From assembly GCF_002571385.2 (NCBI RefSeq), contig NW_019217874.1:191602-242192 (forward strand): 50,591 nt of DNA. The letters run 5' to 3'. Positions within the stretch are counted from its first letter, which is position 1, and each line of letters starts with the position of its first letter. The notes under the pieces were generated by a model. The model was not told the DNA's origin, did no database searches, and was given only the letters and a program-made list of their open reading frames with translations. The translations under genes were made by a program, and so were the position numbers. The stretch comes from Stylophora pistillata (lineage: Eukaryota). Below are positions 10,401 through 49,595 of the stretch, piece by piece.

Positions 10401-13400
10401 CATGCTCATTAGTTAACTAGGAGTCATTTCACTGATTACCATTTACCTGAGCTCTTTGTGGCCCATTACGGGCAAACTGCCTTGTGGTTACTTTGAGATG
10501 AAACTGTTTTTGAAAGGAGGAGGGTGTCATTAAAAAAAAAAATTCGAATTGGGGAGAGAGTTTGGTTGACTTTGACCGTATGAAAATCATGTACATGAAT
10601 TGCAGGTTAATAATGAATTAATGTGAGAATGATCTTTGCAGTAATGAACACCACTTATTAAGTAGTAATGAAAATAGAGCCTGAAAAATATTCAGGCCTG
10701 CATGGGAGTTGAAGCCATGAACAGGTGTTACCGGTGCACTGCTCTACCAACTGAGCTTAGAAGTCAACTGGGAGTTGGTCATTTTGTTGGTTTGTAAGAA
10801 ATTCATCAAGTGTTGAATAAATGACTGGCAGTGAATATAGTATAAGAAAACCATATAATTTTATGTGAACTGTGGACTAACAAAAGACTATGAGGGTGAT
10901 CTTCACAGGGATGAACACTATATGTAGGGTGTATAATGGTGTAAAACAATGTTGATAAGTAATGATAAATCATCTCTTTACAATCAAGGTAATGTTGACA
11001 TGGTTATTGTGACTACACTATCATGTTAGTAGTCTGACAATGTATTCTCTTTATTACAAACAGAGAACATCAGAAGTATTTAGTGGTTTTCAGTCAGCCC
11101 AAAGAGGTCAGTTTGATGCTATGTTAAGTATGACATTCATATTTAGTTAAAGGAACTTTAAGTTGAATGTGGCCAGTAATCTTGGATTGCCCTGGTTTTG
11201 CTGTGCTTCACTCTGATTGCTAGAGGAAAGTCTTGCAACACTCTTTCTGTCTATCAGGTGCAGGAGTCCATTCATTTTTGTTTTATTAGCAAAATTATTA
11301 CATTTGGAAAGTTGAATTTTTCAAGTGAGGAGAATAAAAGATATTAACCTTTTAACTTTCAAGATCTGATTGCTAATTCTCCCCTCTAGCTGCTACACAC
11401 TTCCTTGTAAAGTGGTAATGAGAATTTGGTGTTAAATCAGGGTAACAACTACCTGATAAGTTTGAATACTCTCATTACCTGTTTGCTGGGTAAGGTATGG
11501 AGAAGATAGGGAGAATTTTTATTTTGATCACTTCTGGGAGTTTATTGGTTAAATTCACTGAGCTTAATATCAGGAATGAGATTTGACTTGACAGATATTT
11601 GGAAATTCTTGATTTGCTGTTTGGTCCAAAAATCTGAAGAAAAAGTCAAATTAAACATTTTGTTTTTGGGCATTCAATATTGCTGACTTGAATGATATTT
11701 TGCTCCTATTTCTTGTTAGTTATCTGCTGTCATTGTAACTTATTAGTCAGATGGAGACTGATTGTGCTAGAGTGTTTATTTTATTGATAGGTACAAAGGG
11801 TAGTCATCTCCCCAAAGAACAGAACTTCACGTCTCTGCAGTGGTGTGACAAGTGTGGCAAGTGTCTGTGGGGATTGTTCAGACAGGGAGTTTTGTGTTCA
11901 GAGTGTGGCTTTCAATGTCACAAGAAGTGTATGTTTGACAGTGTTGTGGTATGTCCAAGGAGAAGGGTTAGAATACGAAGAGAAAGTGACGCTGATGGTA
12001 AGATATGGATGCCTTTGCTTATCAATTTATTTGGAGGAGTCACTAAGGACTATTATAAACCGCAAAACTGTAGAAAAAATCATCAAAATTGTAAAACCAC
12101 AAAAAAATTTCGTCAAAACTAAAAACTGCTTGCAAAACTGTCTAAACCAACAATAAAATTTTTTGCATCCCAGTTATCAAAACCTGAAGTGATCCAACAC
12201 ATTGGTAACAAGTGGAGCATACAGAGGTTTCACAGTTATTTGAGATTAGTGGAGAAGCATAATTGCCTCCCTTGTTTGAGCCAAGAGGTCCAACGCTTTT
12301 TTGAAAAATTAAGGGTGTATATATCTTATTTAATCAGTTATGTCAGAGACTAGTTAAAAATATACACTTATTTAACTTCTTATTAATTGCATTTGAGTTT
12401 ACTAATTTTTTGTTTCCTAATTCTAAATTTTTCAATTTTGTTACTTTTTAGTTCCTGTGTTTGGAGCAGAGCTGGGTGCACAGTTTCAACCAACTGATAG
12501 ACCAGCACCAATGGTTGTCACAAAATGTGTTCAGGCCATAGAAAAAGGAAATACAATAAGGACAGTTGGTATCTACAGCATTGTGCCATCAGGAAGTGAA
12601 AAGAATGCTCTTAAGACTGCTTTAAATCAAAGTGAGACTATGTAAAATCTTAAGTTATTCTCTTACCGCAGTATAAGAGTTCATTGTTTTCCCCTTTCAC
12701 TCCCAAAATCTCTTTTATTAGCAATTCTCCTTACAGCCTGCCACACAATTCATATGATGTTAGTTTTGAGAATTTGGTGTTGGATCAACTACTAATCCCT
12801 TATAGTCATAATTCTCATCATCTGACTACGGTACTTGATATTGTAAGGAGAAATTCTGTCTTAGTCACTTATGGGAGTGAAAGGGTGCATCGATCATCTT
12901 ATTGGATGATTAGAGTTTGTCATTTTTGGACTGTTTTTTGTCAAGTTAAATTGTTTTTATTCATGTTGGTTTGTGCTGCTCTGTGTGATGGTAAAACGGG
13001 GGTGTTCAACTTATGCTGATTGTAGGACAGAGAAAAAGTATGATAATGGACTTGTTCCTGTAATAATCCTAACTTATCAGCATGAATTTGTGTGCCACAG
13101 GTGCCAAAAATGTGAACATGGATGATGAAGAATGGAGGAATCCTCATTGTGTTGCCACAGTTCTTAAAATGTATCTAAATGAGCTTCCAACATGTGTGTT
13201 CACTGAGGACAAGTATCTATCATTTGTTAAAATCTTTAGAGGTAAGTAATTGTCAAGGATGTACTTGTAGTTACTCTTAAAGTACGTAGAAAACTACTAA
13301 ATGCAGTTACAAACTGAAGACTCTAAATGGCATCTACTTATGACCTTAATATGATCCCAAGCAGGATTAAAAGACCTTATTCCTGAAAGTGTAGAATAAA

Positions 13401-32859: not shown

Positions 32860-35719
32860 TTGAATCTGATGCATCTAGGCATTTTTATTGACTTAAAAGA
32901 ACTCTATGAAGCACACTTAACTAAATGGTGTGTGACTTGGTTTTAGGTGGTGTATCAAATTGCTTCGTGTGTTGAAGTTAGCAGAAAAAATAGGCCTCTT
33001 CCATTGTCTATACTTTTATAATTTCTTTTTAAAGGAAAACATGGAAATACTGAAATGCAACTTGGTAATCTTCTTTTGCTCTTTGTATGCATCCATCAAT
33101 TATTATCTTTTTCAAGCATGGAAAGGCCCATCCCCTGTGGTTACTCTTGCTTTAGTTACCAAACTAATTTAATTTCATGTTTAATAATAAAAAAAAAGAT
33201 AAGAAACAACTTTGTAACATATTTTATGGTTTGCTTTCCTCCCCTGTTATGTTGTGGCATTTGTGCTTCCTTGCATGGAAAGCCCAGATGAAAAGGGGAA
33301 CTGAGAATTTGTGCAATGACTGGAGAAGTAAGAGCATTAAGAGTGTATTATGAATGGAATAAACTATTTAGATGATTATCTCTCAAAATAGTAACATGAA
33401 GAACCCAAAAATGAATGATGAATCTGTGAAGATTCATAGTCGAGACAAATCATTACCAAATTAAATTGTATGTTGAAGTTAAGGTTTAGATACTCCCTGC
33501 AGAGTAGAGAACAATATGAATGACTGCATGCAGATATGCAGAGCTAAATCAAGCATGCAACCTTATTGTTGTCCTTTATTCTTATCACCATTTATGGTAA
33601 GTTCAATTAAAGAGATTTCGCGTATAATCGTTTTCATGCGAATGTAAATTAGTGCACCTAAATTAAGGTCACTTCCCACCAGTAGATGCTGACTAAATTG
33701 GAGTCACATTTTAACTTTACGAAAAAACAAAAATCCCTTATTGCGTGCGAGTTATTTAGAAGAACGTATTTTCAAATTTCAATAAATCTGGAAGGTGTGA
33801 CAATCTCGTACCTGGGTGAGTCCCCTGGGGGTATTCTCGTGGCAAGGACTCTTTTTCATGTTTTCTGCATACTTGATGAAAGCGACTGATACTTTGCTCC
33901 ACGCTGGCGTTCAGATGTCGTATAAAGAAGTCTCCGTCAAAACAAAATTTTTCGTTTATTAAGTTAAAAACGAGGTTACCAGCCTTGATACAAAAACATT
34001 CACAAGCGCCTCGAATCCAGTTTTTCCATTTTTGCTGCGGGTTTTTCCGTTGCCTTTGACAACTTTGCCCATTTTTGTGTCGTTCTCCTCAACGCGCCAC
34101 CGAGCGATTGGGATAAAAAAAGAAAAAAACGCGTCTGCAATGCGTTACTTTCCCGGGAAATCTTGATTCGTCGTCATTGCGCTTCACGCCTTATCGGGTC
34201 CTGACGCTTTTTATTGGGAAAACTCGCTGAAATTATATTATTATCGAAAACTTCATAGTTTGCTAGGATTTTAGTGATGCTGACGCGCGTACGTATTTCT
34301 TCCGAAGGACATCCACGTAGGTGGGAGGTAATAGCGCTAAACTGGTAGATTCTATGCAGTAGCTAATGTTTTATCGGTGGAACATCAAACCAACAAAATT
34401 CCAGATCACATTGTAGACCATCAACGAATCCTTTTTCCTTGACACGTGTTTCGGTTTCAGGCGAAGGTTCATACAGGTCACTGGTCTTTTATGGGCTCAG
34501 CGCTGACTCCCAAACAACTGGCTTCCCCATAATCTTTCAATAGCTGAGAAAAATAGGTGTTTTTAGAGAACCTATAAATTTATAATTATTTATTATTCTT
34601 GAGGATTCTAACTTTTGAAGAGCTCAACTTCTTCTCGGTTGTTTCTCATTTCGGTCTGCCACTTCCGGATCCTCGCTGTCTGCCTACTCCATGGGTCACT
34701 ATTTTACTTCAGAAGAAGTTGTTTCTAGTAGGGCCTGAATCGTCGGTACAGCGCCAGGAAGAAGTACTTTTTTGGTTTTTAAGGCCCATTTCAACCATGT
34801 AGCTTTTCCCGTAACAATCGGGAGAAAATTGACTGGTATAAGCAACAGAATGTTCGGAAGGCTCGACGACATCGGCTCTTCTCAATTGAACAAATTTGCA
34901 CCTTTCGGAAATTTATGCCCGATTTTGTTTGAATTGGTACAAAACTGAGCGACAATGCTTTACCATCATGAAAAAATTGAATATATTCAAACAGATTGTA
35001 AGCACAAAAATCGTGACGAGACCGGCAAAGAACGGCTTCGAAAAAGACTTGCACGTATTTCAAGTACGTATTTCAAGTATTACACGTAGTACCATACTAA
35101 CTATGTAAAAATTTTTGACCGCCAGTACCGCAAAGTGCCACAAACAGCTTTGTGAATAGAAAATGAACGTTTTTGGGGCTTACACATAGTACCATACTAA
35201 CTATGGCTTAAATGCCCTTTAAACTGTGTTCTCAGGAAAGGCATCTACATGGGCAGTAGCTGCTCAACCATTCCCAAATTATCATGCGTACATTGGTAAT
35301 ATAACCCTGGCTGGAGGGAACCAAAGTAAGGTTTGGTAAAAATGGGACCAACAAGATGGCAAGACGTAACTTGACTCAAACATGATCAATTTAAGAGAGA
35401 TTGTCTTCTAGAAAGAACCTTTCTGTTACAACTGGACCCTTTGAAAAGTCAACATCTAAGGCCTGATACTAAATCATCAAATTTACTTTCAACAAGATTT
35501 TCCAAGTTTTAAAGAATGTCTAAAGGAAGTGAAACTCTATTAACTGCTTTTCAGCCCATTGATACTGATAAAAGATTTGTGCATGAGCAAAATTAACAAA
35601 ATGTTCACAAGATGTTGTATTCTACCTTGTACCTTACCTTTCATGGTAGAATAGAGGGGCCTCTGAATTTGTGTAAGCCAGTTGAAAATGAGTCATGGTT
35701 TCTGGACAGAAAAACAATT

Positions 35720-38756: not shown

Positions 38757-40620
38757 AGGCAGCCAGCGCCCCTATTATTGTCTGTACTATTATTATAAAT
38801 TTTTCTTTCTTGTATATTTTGGGGTGAANAAATAAAGTTGTTGTCGTTGTTGGTAAAATAGTATCCACTGAATATTGTGCAAGATAATGGTAGGGCTTAT
38901 CATGATTGTAAAAATGGAAAGGAAATATGAGCCAAAAAAGCAGTTAAATATACCAAAGCCCTCTATTGTTTTTAAGGTATTAAAAGGTATCTCAATTTGT
39001 TAATTCTCAGTCTTTTACCCTTTCAATTTATTTGATGAACTACATACAGAAGTTCCATTTTTAACTACTAACTTGGATCACATTGTATTCAGTGAGATCA
39101 TGGTTCAAAACACTGCACAATCCAGAAAGTTATGGTATCTGTTTTTAAGTTTTCATTATGTTACTATTGTCCTCTACTCAGATGTCATCACCAACAAATA
39201 AACAATTTTTGGACATGGTTCAGCAAAATATAGTGACTTCTTAATGGCAGACATACTATTTACAAAAGAGGAAAACTTAGACGTATAACAGATGAGTGTG
39301 ATACGGACAAATCACAATATTTCAAAATGATCCTGTTCAATAGTTTATGGAGTTTGTTTTCATAATTATTTTGAGGGTTGCCAAATCTGAAGGTATATGG
39401 AGGTGATCTGCTATTTTCCACAGATGTTCATAAGCAGAATATTCTTTGGAGCAAAACATAGTTTGCACATGGGCAACATCAATTTGTGGGCAGTTATTTG
39501 CAGGTCAAATGGTGGGTCCTTGGCCACTGAACCAGAAAATATGCACATCTTGATAATCCACTTTGCTGCTCACCTGTTTTGATGTTGTGGCAGCAAACAC
39601 AATCACACAAACTGTTAACAGTCTAAAGTTTCAGTATAACTCAGTTTTTCTTGAATCAGTTACAACTGATAGATAACAATAAAAATAAGTTTAAATAATC
39701 AATCAGCTTTTTTCCAAACAGCCGCCTTCTTATGAATAGAACCTACCTGTAAGATTAGTTTTTTACAATAACCCTAACTTACTCTGAGAACGAGAAACAG
39801 TCATTCTCCTGCCTCATAATCTCGCACATTGACATGATGTTAATTCAGGTTCTCTCAAAAATACTCTGGAAAATAATCATCCATGGATCTATTTACAAAG
39901 GTCATAAAAGACCGGCCAGCCACTCCTTAGTTACACCTTGATATTACTCAAAATTTCTCAGGTTGCAACCAAATTCTGACAAACGACTCTACTTCTTAAA
40001 AAAAACCCTCTATCAAGTGGACTCCCCAGTATAGACAAAGTACAGTAAATCTTGGCTGTAATCCTTTCCCTCCCATGATGTTGTTAGTGATTCTCCTTAC
40101 TGTCTGCCATATAATTCTTATATGGCAAGTTTGGAGAATTTGGTATTAGATCAACTAATAATCCCTTAATTGATATTTTTCTTTATTCTCATGGCTTGTT
40201 TACCTGATTTTGTAATGAGAAAATCTATCTTGGTCACTCATGGGAATTAAAGGGTCAAAGTGATCAGGTGACAGAAGCTGATGTATGTGATACAATCTCC
40301 TGTTCCCAGTCACACAAACATTGGTGTTTTTTTTACTGAAGCTAAGCCTTACAAAAGAAAATCAGATTCGTTTGGAGAACTCTACGTTCTCATATTGATA
40401 GGGACATGGTCCAGACTATCCTAAACATTCTGAATTATCCCCATCACTTTTCATATAAGTTTTTTTTAAGAGAGTCAAGGATTGCTACTTGAGTGTGCTA
40501 CCATACCACTATTCAACTGTGGAATCCCTGTTGCATAATATCTTAGTTCTGCTGCTTAGTCAAGACTTCTTGCTATTGTTCTCACTGGAAGTAGAATTTC
40601 AGTTTAAAATGCAGACGTTC

Positions 40621-41349
40621 TCCTCCACTGTTTTTGAAAATATCACTTAAAATGCTCTTTAAGTGTCCAAAAGTAGATTTTTCAGAGAGAAAAATGTTCT
40701 CTCCCCTTAGTTTTTTTTTTTGGCCTCTCAAAAGAGGCCTTCATGACCAGTTCGAAAGTTCCGCGGTCACCATTTTGATTGGTGCGCAAGGCTCTCTGGG
40801 GTGATGACGTAAAATGGTTGCTCGATTCCCTTGCCCTTGGTAAAATTGGTAGCAAAATGCCGCATTGCGTTGCTTTTGAGTGTAGTATTCAAGCTAAAAA
40901 CAGGAAAGGGGTAAGTCTTTTCAAAGCAATGCTGTTCGAAGTGCTTCGAACACAGACGCAAGTCTTTGGGCAAGGATGTCCTTCCAACAGCATGAATCCA
41001 AGCTCGTTGAATCGCTGCATCATTCGGAAAATTGTGGAAATGAATTTCGGGATCGTTTTTCCTGTTTTTAGCTTGAATACTACACTCAAAAGCAACGCAA
41101 TGCAGCATTTTGCTACCAATTTTACCGAGGGCAAGGGAATCGAGCAACCATTTTACATCATCACCCCAGAGAGCCTTGCACGCCGATCAAAATGGCGACC
41201 GCGGGACATTCGAACTGGTCACGAAGGCCTCTTTTGAGAGGCCAAAACATAAAATCTAAGGGGATAGAACATTTTTCTGTCCAAAAAATCTACTTTCGGA
41301 CAGTTAAAGAGAATTTTAAGGGATACTTTCAAAAACAGTGGAGGATCCT
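40621..41349. mobile_element. Fold-back element made of two inverted 5' ends of a THAP transposon (Kolobok-like)
   Basis: The arms 40621-40907 and 41058-41345 are inverted copies. The right end reads TTAA-AGGATCCTCCAC on (-). Each arm includes the THAP start codon. Confidence 0.75.
40767..41108 (-). CDS. THAP-domain mini-ORF (113 aa), transposon-derived; expression unknown
   Basis: MLHCVAFEC...FHNFP...RAWIHAVGR...LRLCSKHFEQHCF keeps the C2CH ligands and the conserved P, W and F. Confidence 0.55.
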   Translation of the reverse strand: MLHCVAFECSIQAKNRKNDPEIHFHNFPNDAAIQRAWIHAVGRTSLPKDLRLCSKHFEQHCFEKTYPFPVFSLNTTLKSNAMRHFATNFTKGKGIEQPFYVITPESLAHQSKW

Positions 41350-41705
41350 TTAAAATAAGTTCAATTAGGCAAATTTGTTTTCCATGCTACTTTTTACATA
41401 GTGTAAGAGAAACATATATTTTTGGGTTTACATGCCCTTAAAGATCAAGACAGGTGGAAACTTGAGTATTACAGAAGAATGTTGAAGACTTTTGGGGGCT
41501 TACACGACTACAATTTACAAATCGTTTATTTTACTCCTCCCACCACTCTTCCCTCTGCCTCTCTGTACCTGATGACAGTCTTGACAGCTGTTCTCCACTT
41601 GCTCCTATCTGTGGCCAGTGCTTCCCAATTAGCTGGGTTGATTACCCCTGTCTTCAGAGTGAGGTGTTATTGTTTCCTGTTTGTTGATGAACCATTTCCA
41701 ATATT

Positions 41706-41936
41706 CAGATACAATGAAATATATGAAGTTCATATATTTGCGGTATTAGATACATATGATACATGATCCTCGCAGTAGATAGCGCTATTTAAGCAATAGC
41801 GAAAAACAGACCTGACCGCTGCACTAGTATCGCAGAGGTCAGTGGTTCGAATCCCGTACAGGCCTGATTTTTTTCAGGTCTGTTTTTCGCTATTGCTTAA
41901 ATAGCGCTATCTACTGCAAGGATCATGTATCATATG
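41706..41936. mobile_element. Short internally inverted insertion of the tRNA-like element, with a 13-bp TSD
   Basis: CATTTCCAATATT lies at 41693-41705 and 41937-41949. The inversion junction is at ~41816, and both arms match the 250-bp unit. Confidence 0.85.
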
Positions 41937-42035
41937 CATTTCCAATATTATTCTAAATATATGTTTGACCTTTTGACTAAAGAGTGAAAAGTCAGTGCTG
42001 TCTCATCAGTTACACAATCTTTCGCATCATATTGC

Positions 42036-43685
42036 TTACTCACTTTCCTCACCAGATCTATTGTCCATTTCCATGCTGATATCATTGTCTTCTTTCATGT
42101 CTGTGTTGACCTCAATTGTTAGCTGTTCAAGAGTTTCACCCAGCATGTGAACACTAAAAGTATCCTCTCGTTGAATTCCAAGTGCCTTATGGAAATAGCC
42201 TATTGCTTCATGGTGATTTCCTAAGAGACTACTGACAAAGCCAAGGGCAGAGAAAGTGGAAGCCTTGTTTGGAACAAGAACAAGTGCTTGCTTGTGGTAT
42301 CGTAATGCTTCTTGGTATCTCCCTAGCTTGCGGCAAGCGTGGCCAAGGTTACTAAGCAGAGTTTCCCAAGTTTCTGAGAGAACTTCCCCGCTAGTGATCT
42401 GCGCTTTCTGGAGAGCTGCCTTGAAGTTCTTTTCTGCTGAAAGATAATCTCCATTTTGAAAGGCAATCACACCCATTTCCTGCTTCACAAAAGGATCATC
42501 TGGTGAAAGAATTAAAGCCTGTTCAAAAAACCTTTCAGCCAGTTTTGCATTATTGGTTTTTCCATACTCCAGGCCAATATAGAGAAGAGGCAGATGGCAT
42601 CTTGGCATCAGCTTAGATGCTGTGAAGTAAGCTGCCATTGCTTGATCATGCTCTCCTTCTGCAGCAAAAGCATGCCCAAATGCAAGCCATGCTGGTCCAT
42701 AAACTCGTTCCAGACTGGTAGCTTTGCTAAAGTACCTCCTAGCCTGCTCATACTTTTCAATAACATAGTAATAGCAGCCAACTGCATACCAAGCGACTGC
42801 CTTATGGGGATAGTTATCAACCAGCTTATGTCCAAGGTAAAACAATTCATTCATTTTCTTCAGTTCTACCAGGCAGGTGATATGAATGGGCAAGCAAGCT
42901 TCATGATAAGGATCAGACATCAGGACAGCAGATGTCATCTTGTATGACTGATGGTAACTGCAGTTGTAAAAGTGCCGCTCAGCCATTCCAGCGACTACAT
43001 CCAGGTTGTCATACAAGCTTTCCAAACCAGGAGGTAGCTTCGGGTCAACTGGTTTGCAGTACCTTTTCATCTTTCCTTCGTACAAGAATTTCAACAAATC
43101 AACCTCTTCAGGCATGCATTGCTCCGAGAAAGGCAGAGAAGAAAGCAATTCTCGTTCTTCTTTATCGGTCAGCATGTGATGAGAAACAAGTAGATCAAAC
43201 GCTTCAAAACAGCGCACGTCATTTTTGAGGGCATCTTTGAAACAATCTGTGGCTAAAGCTCGGTTATCCATAGCCTCATACACGACTCCTTTCAACAAAC
43301 AAACTGCACTTTCGAGCTTTTTCGTTCCGCCGACAAAGCAAATCTCCGCTAGATCCTTTTCTGTCGGCTCCTTTTGCTCCATGTCCAGAACTTCTAGAGC
43401 TTCCTGCCATTGTTTACATTCTGCATGGCACTTGGCGGCCAGATAGCGGCATGCTAGGCTCGTCTGAAGAACGCCTCCACGGCTTCTAAGCACGTGTGAA
43501 GCTCGATGGAATTGAGCAGTTAGAAATAAAGTCTGGGCAAGCCAGTATACATCTTGGATGTCTCCATTAGACAGGGATACAGCTTTATCTGCCCAAAACA
43601 AAGCCGTTTTGTACAAATGCATGTCTATATATTGACGAACAAGGTTTCGAAGTTGAGAGATATCAACCTTCCCGCCAGTCGCCAT
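42036..43685 (-). CDS. CDC16: Anaphase-promoting complex subunit CDC16/APC6 (TPR repeats), intronless CDS, ~549 aa
   Basis: LRNLVRQYID..YKTALFWADK, WYAVGCYY, FSKATSLERVYGPAWLAFGHAFAAEGEHDQAMAAYFTA and LSNLGHACRKL. The likely start is MATGGK at 43685 (AAGATGGCG context), not the ORF-track TTG at 43835. Confidence 0.95.
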   Translation of the reverse strand: MATGGKVDISQLRNLVRQYIDMHLYKTALFWADKAVSLSNGDIQDVYWLAQTLFLTAQFHRASHVLRSRGGVLQTSLACRYLAAKCHAECKQWQEALEVLDMEQKEPTEKDLAEICFVGGTKKLESAVCLLKGVVYEAMDNRALATDCFKDALKNDVRCFEAFDLLVSHHMLTDKEERELLSSLPFSEQCMPEEVDLLKFLYEGKMKRYCKPVDPKLPPGLESLYDNLDVVAGMAERHFYNCSYHQSYKMTSAVLMSDPYHEACLPIHITCLVELKKMNELFYLGHKLVDNYPHKAVAWYAVGCYYYVIEKYEQARRYFSKATSLERVYGPAWLAFGHAFAAEGEHDQAMAAYFTASKLMPRCHLPLLYIGLEYGKTNNAKLAERFFEQALILSPDDPFVKQEMGVIAFQNGDYLSAEKNFKAALQKAQITSGEVLSETWETLLSNLGHACRKLGRYQEALRYHKQALVLVPNKASTFSALGFVSSLLGNHHEAIGYFHKALGIQREDTFSVHMLGETLEQLTIEVNTDMKEDNDISMEMDNRSGEESE

Positions 43686-44131: not shown

Positions 44132-47100
44132 ATGTCTTCCGGTGAGAAACTTCCTAAAGGCAAGGGCAAGAAAGCTGCCCCGAAAGCTAGTTCCACTAAA
44201 GGTACGACATGTTTTGTTTCTGTCATGAAATTTGGTTTTAGATAACGAACTTGGAGCCAATAGGTAAATGAATTTTTCTTTAATAGCGTTGTTGAGAGAC
44301 ATCTAAATTTCACCCGGATGATATGTAGAATTATTGTTCTTAACCATGTATGACATTCCAGTCAGTTTTACGCCCCTACGCTCAAATTGCGCGACCCGTG
44401 TCCATAACAAACATTGACAAACATCTGTTTTGATGAAGAGTGAAATAGTTCTGTTTTTTTTTTATACGATACCATTCATTTCATTGCCTTCCTTTTTTTC
44501 TTTTTCGTAATAACAAGGTAAAGAACCTCAGCTGAACGACCGTCGATTCCGAGGAGAAGGCGTAAAATTCAAGTGCAAAGTAAGTTCTTCAATGTCTCCT
44601 CCTACACGATTTAAACAAGGAACTCAAAACTGTGAATCGCTAACGCATCAGTTAGATTTTGGTTATAACCATACTTGAATTCTTGTGTTATATTATTTAA
44701 CGTATAGTAACGTTAAACAGATCTTCGGTAAAACATGATATAAATTATAAGAATTTGTAAACTGTTGTAGGCTGAGGGGTGATGTACATTTAAAGACGTG
44801 CAATTGCTTAGTAACGGTTGTCTCTATTTCTTGCAGCTTGTAGGCACAGCAGATGTGAACAACGCAAGAGGTGATGCAATGTGTGCAGAGGTCATCAACA
44901 ATTTAAAGGTTGGTAGTTGTTTGAATTAATATTGTAGCATACAATTTTAGTTACATCACGTAAATATCGATTTTGATTGGTTCTGTGCGGGCTTATTTGG
45001 GTGTTACGAAAACTAAGACCCTCAAAAAAGAAGACCTAAGACCCGTCTTAGTTTTCGAGATTACAAAAACTAAGACCTCCTAAAATCGAATCCGTCGAAA
45101 TATAAAGTCAAATTGTAACCAAAACAGGTCTAATCTGTCAAATTATCTCCTGTCCGATCCTTTCCTCCGAGTTTTAGGTCAAATTTAACAGTAAATTTAG
45201 GGGTCTTAGTTTTCATAATCTTGAAAACTAAGACCCCTCTTAGTTTTCGTAATTGGGAAAACTAAGACACCCCCAAAACCATTCTATAAAATGACTACAA
45301 AGTCAAACTATGACTGTGGACATTATATTAAGAACCCACAGAAAGCTCATATTCAGTCAATCGAGCAATAACACTGGTATACTTGCAATAAGTGGTTTGC
45401 ACATTATGTCATTGCTGCCATGTTGGTGGGGGCAACCCTAAAACCAGGAAACCGGAAACCGGAATCCGGAATCCAAAAATAAAGCAAAAACAAAGTTTTT
45501 CAAATACACAAAAGTTAAGTTGCAAATTTTTCTCCTGGAAATATAAAAAGGTCAATAAAAAATGGCATCAAAGCACAGCTCTTTTGATAAAAAGGACTCC
45601 CGGCATTTCAGTTCAATAGACAACCGTTAATCCTTGTGAGGGCTATGGATATGTTGTAGTTCAATTTTATCCTTGGTTCAAATTTTATTTTCCTTTGTTC
45701 TTGGTCATGTTAATGTTTGGTAATGAGTTTGAAACAAAGGAAAATAAAATTTGAATCAAGGATAAAATTGAACTACAACAGATATACCAACCATACCAAT
45801 GCATCATAATTTGATTCTAAGTACTCGAAAAGCGACTAAAGTGCGATTGCTTGTAACTGCCTTGTTGTTAAGTGATCTGCATGCAATTTTCCAGAGTTAT
45901 AACTTGGCCTTCATGCCCAGTAGATACACAACAAGTCAGCAAATGTCATAGAGAAGAGGCATTTCTATTAATAACTGGTTAAGGGGGTAACAAGTCATCA
46001 TTTTGCTTTCCACCCTGTCCTGCCCAAGTAATCTAAATCCTTGGTACAAGTGGTGGCGAGAAATGGTCTGTTTATGTTCATGTGGGCCTGGAATCTGTTT
46101 TTAAACAAAGATGGAGGATCAAAGCTTGAACAGTGTCATGAAAAAGAAAACCTTTAATTGCAAATGTTTGAAGAATAACTTGTCTTGGGTTGTGCTCACT
46201 GGTAAGTCTCATTACATACTTAAGGTTTCGTAAAACAGTTCAACCACTCGACCAGCATCCTTAGCTATAAGCTGAAATATTACGAACTAAACTTGACCAA
46301 GTATTTTCTCGAATTGTCCGTCCACCAGATTACAACTTAAATCAGTATATCTTTACAAAACCGGTGTCCGGATTCTGGTTTCCGGCTTCTGGTTTCCAGA
46401 TTCTGGATTCCAGATTCTGATTTCCGGTTTCCATTTTGCTGGTTTTATGGTTGCCCTGTTGGTGGACGTAAACAATAGATATCTCATCAACTTCTTTTGT
46501 TGGGAAAGCGCTAACATCGATTTTATCTGTTTCTGAACAAAGGAGTTAATCTCCGACACTGGAAATCGCGACCAGTATTCCTTGTGACTCCCCAAGTTTG
46601 TTTTCCAATTTGTCCTAGCCGCTGCTGATCACTTCTTGTGTAAAAACTTACGAAACCTGTGAAGTGGAACTAGGGTGGCTACTGTTGCTTGCCGATATTA
46701 TTCATCGGCAAAATGTAGTAAGTCAGTAAAAGTGGCCAATTCTGCCAGGGAAATTTTATTGTCTGGAGCTTGGACTTGTCAGGAGAGTTTCCTTGACAGC
46801 TGGATTACACCCCATGTTGTGAAACCATTTGTGAAGACATCACGTTTTTTCTTTGCTTCTTTTGTCACATTTCTTCACTTTGTTATGTTTTTTCTTTGCT
46901 TTTTTTGTCACATTTCTTCGCTTCATGATGTTACAGTAGCACGGGAAATCTAACCGAATTTATTATCGAATATGAGCTGTGGGTTCTTAAGTTAATGTCC
47001 ATGTGCAATCCGCCAAAACCTAGCACGTGTGCAGAAGTTATTCAGCACCGTCACAGGTAACGCAATCTCGATCGCAGAGACACGTAGAATAACATCCATC

Positions 47101-49595
47101 TTCAATGGAAAGCCAATGTTATGATTTAAAGGATAGACAACAAAATTAAAGATCAATTGGGGTAAGGCATATTTTCAGTGTACAATTATACGTAGGTAGT
47201 GTATTGCTTTCATCGTCTCTATAAAGCCACAATGCTGAAAATATGTCTGCAAATTGTTAGAAGAAGTGGATCGTCTAGCACGCGTACAATTATAGTTTTT
47301 GGTTGTTTTACGGATTATAGTCTTTGAACGGTCATAATTCAACTTTGTAGACATTTTACAGACTGGTTTGGTGGGGGTCTTAGTTTTCGTAATTACAAAA
47401 ACTAAGAGGGGTCTTAGTTTTCGAGATTATGAAAACTAAGACCCCTAAATTTACCATTAAATTTGACGTAAAACTCGGTGGAAAGGACCGGACAGGAGAT
47501 AATTTGACAGATTAGACCTGTTTTGGTGACAATTTGACTTTATATTTCGAAGGATTCGATTTTAGGGGGTCTTAGTTTTTGTAATCTCGAAAACTAAGAC
47601 GGGTCTTAGGTCTTTGGTCTTCGTTTTTGAGGGTCTTAGTTTTCGTAACACCCAGGCTTATTTTGTGATTCAACTGTTTCTTTATTCCATTCATTTACTT
47701 AGTGTTTAGTATTTATCTAATATGATCATTACTTCTTTGTGTTTTCACATATTCACAGTTTCTGTTGTTGAGAAAAGATGTATTATGTCTACTCATCCCA
47801 ATCTTGTGACTCTCAGAAATTGTTAGACGATAATGAGTAATGGTAATAGAGCCTAAGGAGTCCAATTTGGTTTGTAATCATATAAGTGATTAAAAGAATT
47901 GAATGGCAGCAAAACTGGATTCTGATATCTCAGTCACAAATAATTATGATTACTGAGCAAATTAGACAACATGAATTCCTAGTGTCAATAACTATTGCAG
48001 TTACTGAGAAAAAAATGTATCTTTGAAAGAGAGGCTTGTCATTGCAATCTTAAATACTTAACTATTACAATCTTGTGATGAAAGTGCAATGGAAGCTCTA
48101 TGTTTTGTCTAATGAACTAATTTCTTCCACTCTGGGGAAATCCCCAGTTTTGGATGGTAAGTGGTGCTATGGTGACTATCATCAAGTTTGTGATTGGTGG
48201 ATTCATGTGAGTACATGTATACTCAGTGTGATTGGCTGATGTAGCTGTTGGATTACAACTTTACAGATGAATGTGTAAAAAAAAATCAGTTCATCCACCA
48301 ATTACATTTGACAAGACTAATGGTTATAATTATAACCAAAGACTTCAGATATTTTTTAGCCATTTGCCATCTGAATTATAATTTCCACTCACCAGAACAA
48401 TTTTCATGGCAAGTTAAAAATAAGCCAGAGCTAAGTTGGGTAAAGCAGTTTGTCGAAAATGCAGATTCAACTGCCATGGTAATACATGGTTTTTATCCAT
48501 GGTTAACCTAGTAATTTATTTTTGTTCACTCAATTTGAGTTCTGTCAAGCTAGTTTGTTATATGTTACCATAATTTTGTTGTGATTGGTTGGTGTGATTA
48601 GTTTGGGTTTGGTTGGTGTCACTCAGTTCAGGAGGGGTTCAGCTGTCCAAACTTTGATGGTGATTATAATGCCAGTGCATTTGTATTGTCTAGAGAATAG
48701 TTTGTTTTTTGGTCAGATGTGACTATAATTTGTGTGTTATTTTCATGCAAGTAGTTTATTTCCTACAGTTTCTGTCTTTATAAAAATGCTATCAGATGTT
48801 TGTCCTGTCTTTGCAACTTTTAATAGTTTTGTTGTGTAAAACTTTTGCTCTTTTTTTTTATGTGGATGCAAAATGAATTTCATAAAATTATTTTGGTGCC
48901 AGCATTTTGTAATCCTTAATATGTATTTCCTAAAGTTTCTGTTTTGATCAGGGTTTATTCTAGAAATTGGCCAAAGATGGCCCATTGGCCTCCTTTAAAC
49001 ACTGGGGGACCCTTTTCCAAGGGAGGTTGCTTAGAAAATGATTATCTTAACAAGTGTTTAAACTTAATGGTACTCCTGTTATAAAGTCAGTGTGTAGGCA
49101 TGAAAAAAACTACAATCGAGACAGTAAAATGGTGTTAAGCTTGAAGTGACTGTAGCAGCTGTTGTATCAATTGAGACAGTAAAATGGTGTTAAGCTTGAA
49201 GTAACTGTAGCAGCTGTTGTAAAATGGTGTTAAGCTTGAAGTGACTGTAGCAGCTGTTGTATTAGTGTTTTATGTGCCCATTTGAAGCTCAGTTTTATGG
49301 AGAAAGGTTTTTTGAATTGTGGAAATCCTGCAATAGGATAAACCCTGTTGACAAAATCGGTACCAAATTGTTTATCCTCTCAATATATTTCAGTTAAGTT
49401 GGGGATATAAACTTTTCTGTGTTGTTGTTTTTTCTGTTGCATGTTTGGATAACATTTCATAACTTTATTTGGTACTTAAATTTTCTAATTCAGGTGCAAG
49501 CCTTAAAGATGAATAAAGAAAGTGGGGAGCACAAGCAGAAAATAATACTCTATACTTCTTTGAAAGGAATCAGGATTGTGGATGAGAAGACTCTG
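44132..49595 (+). CDS. DAB: Disabled (DAB1/DAB2-like) PTB adaptor, first four exons; the gene continues past the window
   Basis: Exons 44132-44201, 44518-44579, 44837-44908 and 49494-49595 give RRFRGEGVKFKCKLVGTADVNNARGDAMC..LK..GEHKQKIILYTSLKGIRIVDEKT, matching the DAB PTB pattern RFKGEGVRYKAKLIG..ARGD..GEHKQKI..DEKT. Confidence 0.88.
45430..46456. mobile_element. Nested non-autonomous element with a 9-bp TSD TGTTGGTGG (Mutator/MULE-like)
   Basis: TIRs GGGCAACC(C/A)TAAAACCAG, subterminal 7-bp GGAA(A/T)CC repeats, and the TSD at 45421-45429 and 46457-46465. Confidence 0.8.
45649..45784. mobile_element. ~135-bp hairpin MITE nested inside the MULE-like element
   Basis: TGTTGTAGTTCAATTTTATCCTTG.TTCAAATTTTATTTTCCTTTGTT and its near-perfect reverse complement flank a ~30-bp loop. 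Confidence 0.8.
49119..49261. repeat. Three imperfect tandem copies of a ~42-54-bp unit
   Basis: GTAAAATGGTGTTAAGCTTGAAGT(G/A)ACTGTAGCAGCTGTTGTA occurs three times. Confidence 0.9.

Follow-up and report, generated by a model that had tools for sequence, protein, structure and literature searches.

The question raised by this locus is how an insert of 231 bp came to lie between two exact copies of a short target sequence with its two arms in opposite orientation. Within the window (the whole stretch of 50,591 nucleotides from Stylophora pistillata contig NW_019217874.1 that was analysed), the 13-mer CATTTCCAATATT occurs exactly twice, at 41,693-41,705 and 41,937-41,949. These two copies of the target-site duplication (TSD) bound the insert (41,706-41,936), and the nearest N lies at 38,829, so that a first reading made from the sequence alone was right in placing an exact 13-bp repeat around it far from any gap. 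Counting unit positions from the first base of a tRNA-like head (window position 25,748), the left arm (41,706-41,815, minus strand) covers unit 82-197 and the right arm (41,817-41,936, plus strand) covers unit 25-145. Both arms are 5'-truncated and meet head to head at one unmatched base (41,816), with their tRNA-sense 3' ends facing outwards. The outer end of the left arm corresponds to a "long" start site (about 196) and that of the right arm to a "short" one (about 146). As the same reading had noted, the plus-strand arm of a large array in the window, ending at 26,140, stops at the same point, unit 145 in both. The left arm only bears a tail of about 52 nt in unit terms (unit ~146-197; 41,706-41,752, minus strand), which includes an AT-rich hairpin and, owing to a 6-nt deletion in this arm, measures 47 bp here; the right arm contains the 3' two-thirds of the tRNA-like head, a T-run hairpin and a second hairpin. 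A segment shared by the two arms in inverted orientation, as originally described, is indeed present; its length is 63 nt rather than about 65 (41,753-41,815 versus 41,874-41,936), and one base differs. The two arms share three uncommon variants, this copy having rare variants of its own on both arms. No reverse transcriptase or GIY-YIG reading frame was found at the insert, and the 248-bp unit is too short to hold one.

The filled site is represented by contigs from four independent runs (X1, X2, X4 and X12), which enter the element from both flanks. The empty allele with a single TSD copy, which the sequence-only reading had proposed to look for, was found in one contig: this 388-nt contig of run X20 aligns to 41,328-41,705 (16 differences in 378 nt), ending with the left TSD copy as its single copy, and then extends by 10 letters that agree at 9 positions with the flank beyond the second copy. 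Support for the empty site is thin (one contig in one of eight runs); contigs of X10, X17 and X19 end within or at the TSD, are uninformative and were left out of the count. The assembly is of 398 Mb and gapped, and some of the runs holding the focal stretch are labelled as coral metagenome. The insert lies 87 nt beyond the stop of an intronless TPR/ANAPC3-domain gene (42,036-43,679, minus strand). RNA-library contigs continue from its open reading frame into the insert, which probably sits in the 3' UTR of the gene. On the minus strand, which is the strand of the gene, the arms (41,753-41,936) are predicted to give an unbroken stem of about 63 bp, and this would probably fall within the same 3' UTR.

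The focal insert is a member of an abundant family of non-coding, tRNA-headed repeats with a unit of 248 or 251 bp, which is present genome-wide. Two DNA searches, from which the best 40 of 891 and the best 40 of 1136 candidates were taken, gave 61 distinct loci; 33 of them were head to head with both flanks resolved, and the other 28, which had a gap at one end or only one arm or were complex, were left out. Exact TSDs of at least 8 bp flank 19 of the 33 loci as compared to 7 of 1056 mismatched flank pairs (21 of 33 versus 17 of 1056 at a threshold of at least 7 bp), and therefore are not due to chance. Twelve of these 33 discovery loci, and 4 of 14 in the validation set, have no exact TSD of at least 7 bp. 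In all the 21 discovery copies with such a TSD (8 retrieved by the monomer and 13 by the insert), one end at unit 143-151 is paired with one at 192-200. Validation on fresh loci gave 14 resolved head-to-head copies, 10 with a TSD of 10-14 bp, and all 10 show the identical pairing of a short and a long end. These 10 also came from the insert-as-query search, and the retrieval of two of the three locus sets with the insert itself favours like ends; in the monomer-query set, unit 145-153 or 191-204 accounts for 46 of 50 resolved outer ends. Taken together, 31 of 31 TSD-flanked copies have one end at about 146 and the other at about 196, leaving a tail of 45-55 nt, and their TSDs measure 7-14 bp with a median of 12. 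The collection of TSD lengths and 3' endpoints over many copies, suggested by the sequence-only reading as a check, thus gave a regular answer, and the preferred 3' priming point that it had postulated exists, since one arm stops at about 146 in every TSD-flanked copy. Because all 31 share the other end as well, the left end of the focal insert is a second fixed start and not a random twin-priming site.

A few loci combine two ends of the same class, and older subfamilies end at the same two sites. The copies show no poly(A) or simple-repeat 3' tail. The inner junctions are variable: some overlap by 0-10 nt, some contain a short filler, and some fold back at palindromes within the unit (54-59 and 165-185). 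The TSDs are AT-rich (76% versus 62% in the background), and nicks were found 5' of RTT in 14 of 31 cases (background 4.9%) and 5' of NTT in 14 of 31 (background 11%). A C at position -1 was considered as a target motif and dropped, being present in 15 of 21 discovery copies but in 2 of 10 validation copies. In 733 kb (overlaps included) that had been fetched for Penelope-like proteins and not for the element, 13 distinct loci hold a copy, which points to thousands of loci genome-wide. One locus (L055:1501-1780), with the end of both arms at 196 and flanks that are mutually reverse complement, represents either a fold-back or an assembly artefact. At L234-L252 a diverged dimer of the unit lies within another repeat and was amplified along with it.

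Insertion of the element was likely the work of a Penelope-like retrotransposon (PLE) and its endonuclease/reverse transcriptase; the fixed ends of the element at about 146 and about 196 are the two limits of a PLE "tail", set by two internal starts of reverse transcription. In two earlier papers (PMC3846280; PMC8557442), PLE insertions are characterised by a 5'-truncated copy in inverted orientation, by junctions of the head-to-head type, by a tail of 30-40 bp on one end and by TSDs of 8-10 bp. A purified Poseidon protein cuts and extends both DNA strands, prefers AT-rich DNA with an ATT motif, and has two internal reverse-transcription starts that bound the tail (PMC11167929). As controls we used autonomous PLEs of the same genome (Poseidon-type, GIY-YIG confirmed, 18 loci). 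Inverted arms were present at 17 of the 18 loci, 15 of these 17 had a TSD of 11-14 bp, which the TSD of the tRNA-headed family resembles, and tails were one-sided, with a length of 19-38 nt in 13 of 15; the RTT preference is lacking in these controls (2 of 15). The PLE protein would nick both target strands about 12 bp apart in AT-rich DNA; each nicked 3' end would then prime reverse transcription at one of the two internal sites of a tRNA-sense RNA, and both cDNAs would halt early and be joined head to head. Target-primed reverse transcription with twin priming, the mechanism originally put forward, was thus correct as to priming from both target strands, and not as to the second start, which is fixed about 50 nt downstream. 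Because this start is fixed in 31 of 31 copies, the pattern is the signature of a PLE tail and not of L1 twin priming (PMC11167929, PMC8557442).

Three other explanations were weighed against PLE mobilisation. A tRNA-derived SINE moved by a LINE, through twin priming on a multimeric or circular RNA with one fixed 3' start and an internal second primer, would account for the long TSD, the inverted and 5'-truncated arms and the A and B boxes of the tRNA head; microhomology at the ends, which is slightly in excess (21 versus 12 and 16 versus 8 matched bases; p about 0.03 each), goes in the same direction. We consider this improbable, as an internal second primer is largely refuted by the constancy of the second start in the TSD-flanked copies; moreover, the copies lack the 3' tail, the autonomous PLE controls match the layout, and inverted arms, which are a minority among L1 insertions, are the rule in this family.

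It is more doubtful still that the element moves at the DNA level, as a MITE, a fold-back or rolling-circle DNA transposon, or a satellite seeded by repair, with its hairpins acting on single-stranded DNA. The hairpins would form in DNA too, some junctions do fold back at the internal palindromes mentioned above, and the flanks of L055 are inverted. However, the TSD length varies from 7 to 14 bp, the termini are two different unit positions and not terminal inverted repeats, the inner point of truncation varies in both arms, fold-back copying cannot supply the tail at 146-197, and the one-sided changes in the first hairpin are of the G-U type on the tRNA-sense strand. As for an assembly artefact or a segmental rearrangement, many assembly gaps occur at arrays of this repeat and their internal units look consensus-filled, which lends this explanation some force in general. 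At the focal locus the chance that it is true is close to nil: the contigs of four independent runs that enter the element from both flanks, the empty-site contig and the rare variants of this copy on both arms refute it for the focal insert; it may hold for the large array at 24.8-26.1 kb.

A partner PLE was searched for, with an outcome that counts against the PLE reading. Neither blastn nor a covariance model showed similarity in sequence or structure between the unit and the PLE 3' ends examined, and a search for the partner with the GIY-YIG family and three PLE protein queries gave nothing above chance outside copies of the element; these protein searches covered the best 150 of 1235-2846 candidates each, and Naiad was not recovered among them. 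Some loci looked like chimeras of the element with a PLE. One of them (L281) proved to be an independent insertion of the element inside a PLE, with its own 13-bp TSD, and three others (L322, L324 and L327) are one duplicated composite with non-coding spacers, in which a PLE piece, a spacer and an array of the element follow one another and the right ends differ. At L290:3070-3220 the arm of a Neptune-type PLE is joined head to head to an arm of the element that ends at the long site. This might be a two-template insertion, which would name the partner; the far end of the locus lies in a 6.3-kb gap. A young Neptune-type PLE family (L090-L110) has two 3' ends about 95 nt apart, a distance that exceeds the 30-40-bp tail in print.

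The nature of the template is a separate matter. The sequence-only reading had argued that duplication of the 3' segment calls for a multimeric or circular RNA. The focal insert alone does not need one, because both its arms lie within unit 25-197 and a single monomer read twice, from two starts, suffices. The idea stands at the level of the family: among 26 gap-free TSD-flanked copies, 18 have an arm that crosses unit position 1 and in 16 an arm exceeds one unit in length, from which we infer a template longer than one unit, either multimeric or circular. In 24 of the 26 the long arm overlaps the segment of the short arm by more than 15 nt, and inner ends rarely fall near +1 (2 of 52) or near position 38 (2 of 52). 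A one-unit circle copied round and a linear read-through transcript of a genomic array appear to us equally probable as this template; the junction sequence of the circle is that of the tandem array, so contigs alone cannot separate them. In 22 of 31 cases the two arms of a copy resemble one another more than they resemble foreign arms (mean rank 0.29, p=2.6e-4), a similarity that could also arise by gene conversion or by consensus-filling in a gapped assembly; both arms would likely have been copied from the same or closely related RNA.

The tRNA-like head carries A and B boxes. In the reference copy (25,748-25,820, plus strand) it is called as tRNA-Thr AGT by ARAGORN and scores 48.9 bits with the Rfam tRNA model; pairing in its D, anticodon and T stems is partly non-standard and its anticodon hexamer is self-complementary, and the T stem of the young family has two mismatches. 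The unit folds better than 200 of 200 shuffles (z -4.1). Four helices are kept across 12 sequences of four subfamilies, with 92% of cells paired versus 30-43% in slid controls and three pairs with a two-sided change; the helix score was reached by 3-4 of 500 shuffles, a comparison that can be inflated by the relatedness of the sequences. The hexamer at 31-36 is palindromic in 83 of 104 locus-level counts (69 ACTAGT and 14 ACCGGT). Its conservation is suggestive only, since the change between ACTAGT and ACCGGT is also a double CpG-decay path. Position 33 of tRNAs is nearly always U, and the ACCGGT type carries C33. Folding predicts, in 4 of 4 variants, that a transcript stopping at the first T-run closes an acceptor stem of its own (P 1.00) and that a read-through transcript lacks this stem (P 0.00). 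With the end at the second T-run, the predicted fold contains a composite acceptor (P 1.00) and a cross-anticodon helix (P 0.16-0.90), and this composite fold lies 0-1.2 kcal/mol from the minimum in 4 of 4 variants.

These predicted folds allow the tentative and rather unlikely proposal that the element is a retrozyme without ribozyme, whose one-unit circle would be released as an "intron" by the tRNA splicing of the host and then copied by a PLE. RNA polymerase III would pass the first T-run and stop at the second; the conserved hairpin would hide the acceptor strand of unit 1, and the 5' half of unit 1 would pair with the 3' half of unit 2. The self-complementary anticodon loops of the two units may then form a junction similar to a bulge-helix-bulge, and the read-through transcript would resemble an intron-bearing pre-tRNA whose intron is one unit. 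From this, tRNA-splicing endonuclease and RtcB would release the circle, which a PLE dimer would copy from the two fixed sites into both target strands. The predicted read-through transcript would have a proximal pair, C32-G, that precedes the 37/38 cut by 6 nt. Against the proposal, most polymerase III should terminate at a run of seven T's, a mismatch at 31-39 shifts the bulge, the T stem of the young family is weakened, and the cross-anticodon helix is fully paired; fully paired helices splice worse, according to part of PMC6614914. On neither strand of a unit dimer was a hammerhead core motif found, and no Rfam ribozyme scored at E<=10.

The closest known systems are animal non-LTR retrozymes and the non-autonomous Chlamys elements. 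As outlined in sections of PMC7229834 and of bioRxiv 10.64898/2026.07.22.740005, the former have a non-coding unit of 150-450 bp in head-to-tail arrays, occur in corals (220-245 bp in Acropora), and have been proposed to depend on PLEs and on a circular RNA template. The element likewise forms head-to-tail arrays of a unit in this size range. By contrast, retrozymes are defined by a type I hammerhead and are pLTR-related, whereas the element carries a tRNA look-alike in place of any hammerhead and has a circle that is only predicted; a term search of the accessible portion of the bioRxiv text gave no mention of tRNA. Like Chlamys elements such as MRC1, it behaves as a non-autonomous passenger of PLEs with multicopy head-to-tail insertions; the pertinent part of PMC8557442 has Chlamys elements generally sharing 3' sequence with an autonomous family, none being found for the element among the PLE loci fetched, and mentions no tRNA module. 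With PLEs that have an endonuclease (Penelope/Poseidon, Neptune, Naiad), as characterised in excerpts of PMC3846280, PMC8557442 and PMC11167929, it shares head-to-head 5'-truncated arms, partial tandems, a one-sided tail between two reverse-transcription starts, a TSD of about 12 bp and AT-rich targets. It differs from them in having neither ORF nor hammerhead, in its tRNA-like head, in the absence of detected pLTR similarity, and in a tail of about 50 nt against the 30-40 given in those excerpts and the 19-38 of most sampled Poseidons.

The tRNA-like head with A and B boxes, target-primed reverse transcription and TSDs are common to tRNA-derived SINEs (SINE2); unlike these, the insertions are circularly permuted and do not start at the head, have two fixed internal 3' ends and carry no LINE-type tail. 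Unlike L1 twin priming, the inverted arm starts at a fixed site and the arms overlap, by more than 15 nt in 24 of 26 copies. The predicted C-G proximal pair, 6-nt spacing and one-unit "intron" recall tRNA intronic circular RNAs as presented in part of PMC6614914; the predicted "intron" differs from those in being the element's own copy, with a fully paired helix, a 31-39 mismatch and a weakened T stem. The element behaves as a PLE passenger, and it lacks the hammerhead of retrozymes, the insertion pattern of a canonical SINE and the variable second start of L1 twin priming. No description of a tRNA-headed PLE passenger was found in the literature, and an unnamed entry may sit in Repbase, Dfam or the supplement library of PMC8557442; the family is not described in the sections of PMC5786205, PMC2888827 and PMC12070523 concerned.

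The integration of PLEs is the least understood among eukaryotic retrotransposons, and this family supplies many short natural products of it, in which the two start sites are each used once per event, on different target strands; the two starts had been reported in vitro without a strand difference (PMC11167929). The parasites of PLEs extend beyond hammerhead retrozymes to a tRNA-headed type. tRNA callers count units of the element as genes, which may inflate tRNA numbers in cnidarians; the relevant part of PMC2888827 gives more than 17,000 mostly clustered tDNAs for Nematostella. If the splicing model were true, a mobile element would borrow host tRNA splicing for its replicative circle.

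The large array consists of a left arm of about three 251-bp units (24,796-25,563, minus strand; outer end at unit 147) and a right arm of about 2.3 units of 248 bp (25,562-26,140, plus strand; outer end at unit 145). Both outer ends are of the short type, the left one abuts a gap of 158 N (24,637-24,794), and no TSD is visible; the array is possibly an assembly join. The focal insert had been taken as independent support for the finding made on this array; this is weakened by the two short ends, the gap and the lack of a visible TSD, which make the array a weak corroborator. Hypermutation of the terminal array units was considered and rejected in favour of query selection and consensus-filled internal units. 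A 2.4-kb duplication (22,204-24,636 and 32,234-34,666; 99.75%) ends at the N gap beside the array. Sequence comparison also revealed an older relative of the unit, about 75% identical, at 10,566-10,800 (minus strand); it has a GGT anticodon, and a weak second unit lies upstream (10,566-10,985 in all; model match E 6e-4).

Other repeats were observed in the window. A minimal hammerhead-like motif at 29,240-29,290 (plus strand), below the Rfam gathering score, belongs to a repeat common to PLE-containing loci, and at 29,324-29,542 (minus strand) a PLE-like element, represented by its 3' end and bearing a hammerhead-like motif, adjoins a (TA)n run. A self-inverted repeat of 725 bp (40,621-41,345; 83%), MITE-like and in high copy in the reads, holds a short Cys-rich reading frame, which we take to resemble a THAP start. 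The window begins with a degenerate CCTAAC-type hexamer repeat (1-78), and inverted repeats of about 325 bp (44,998-45,317 and 47,328-47,654; 91%) with internal 34-bp repeats likely belong to a DNA transposon.
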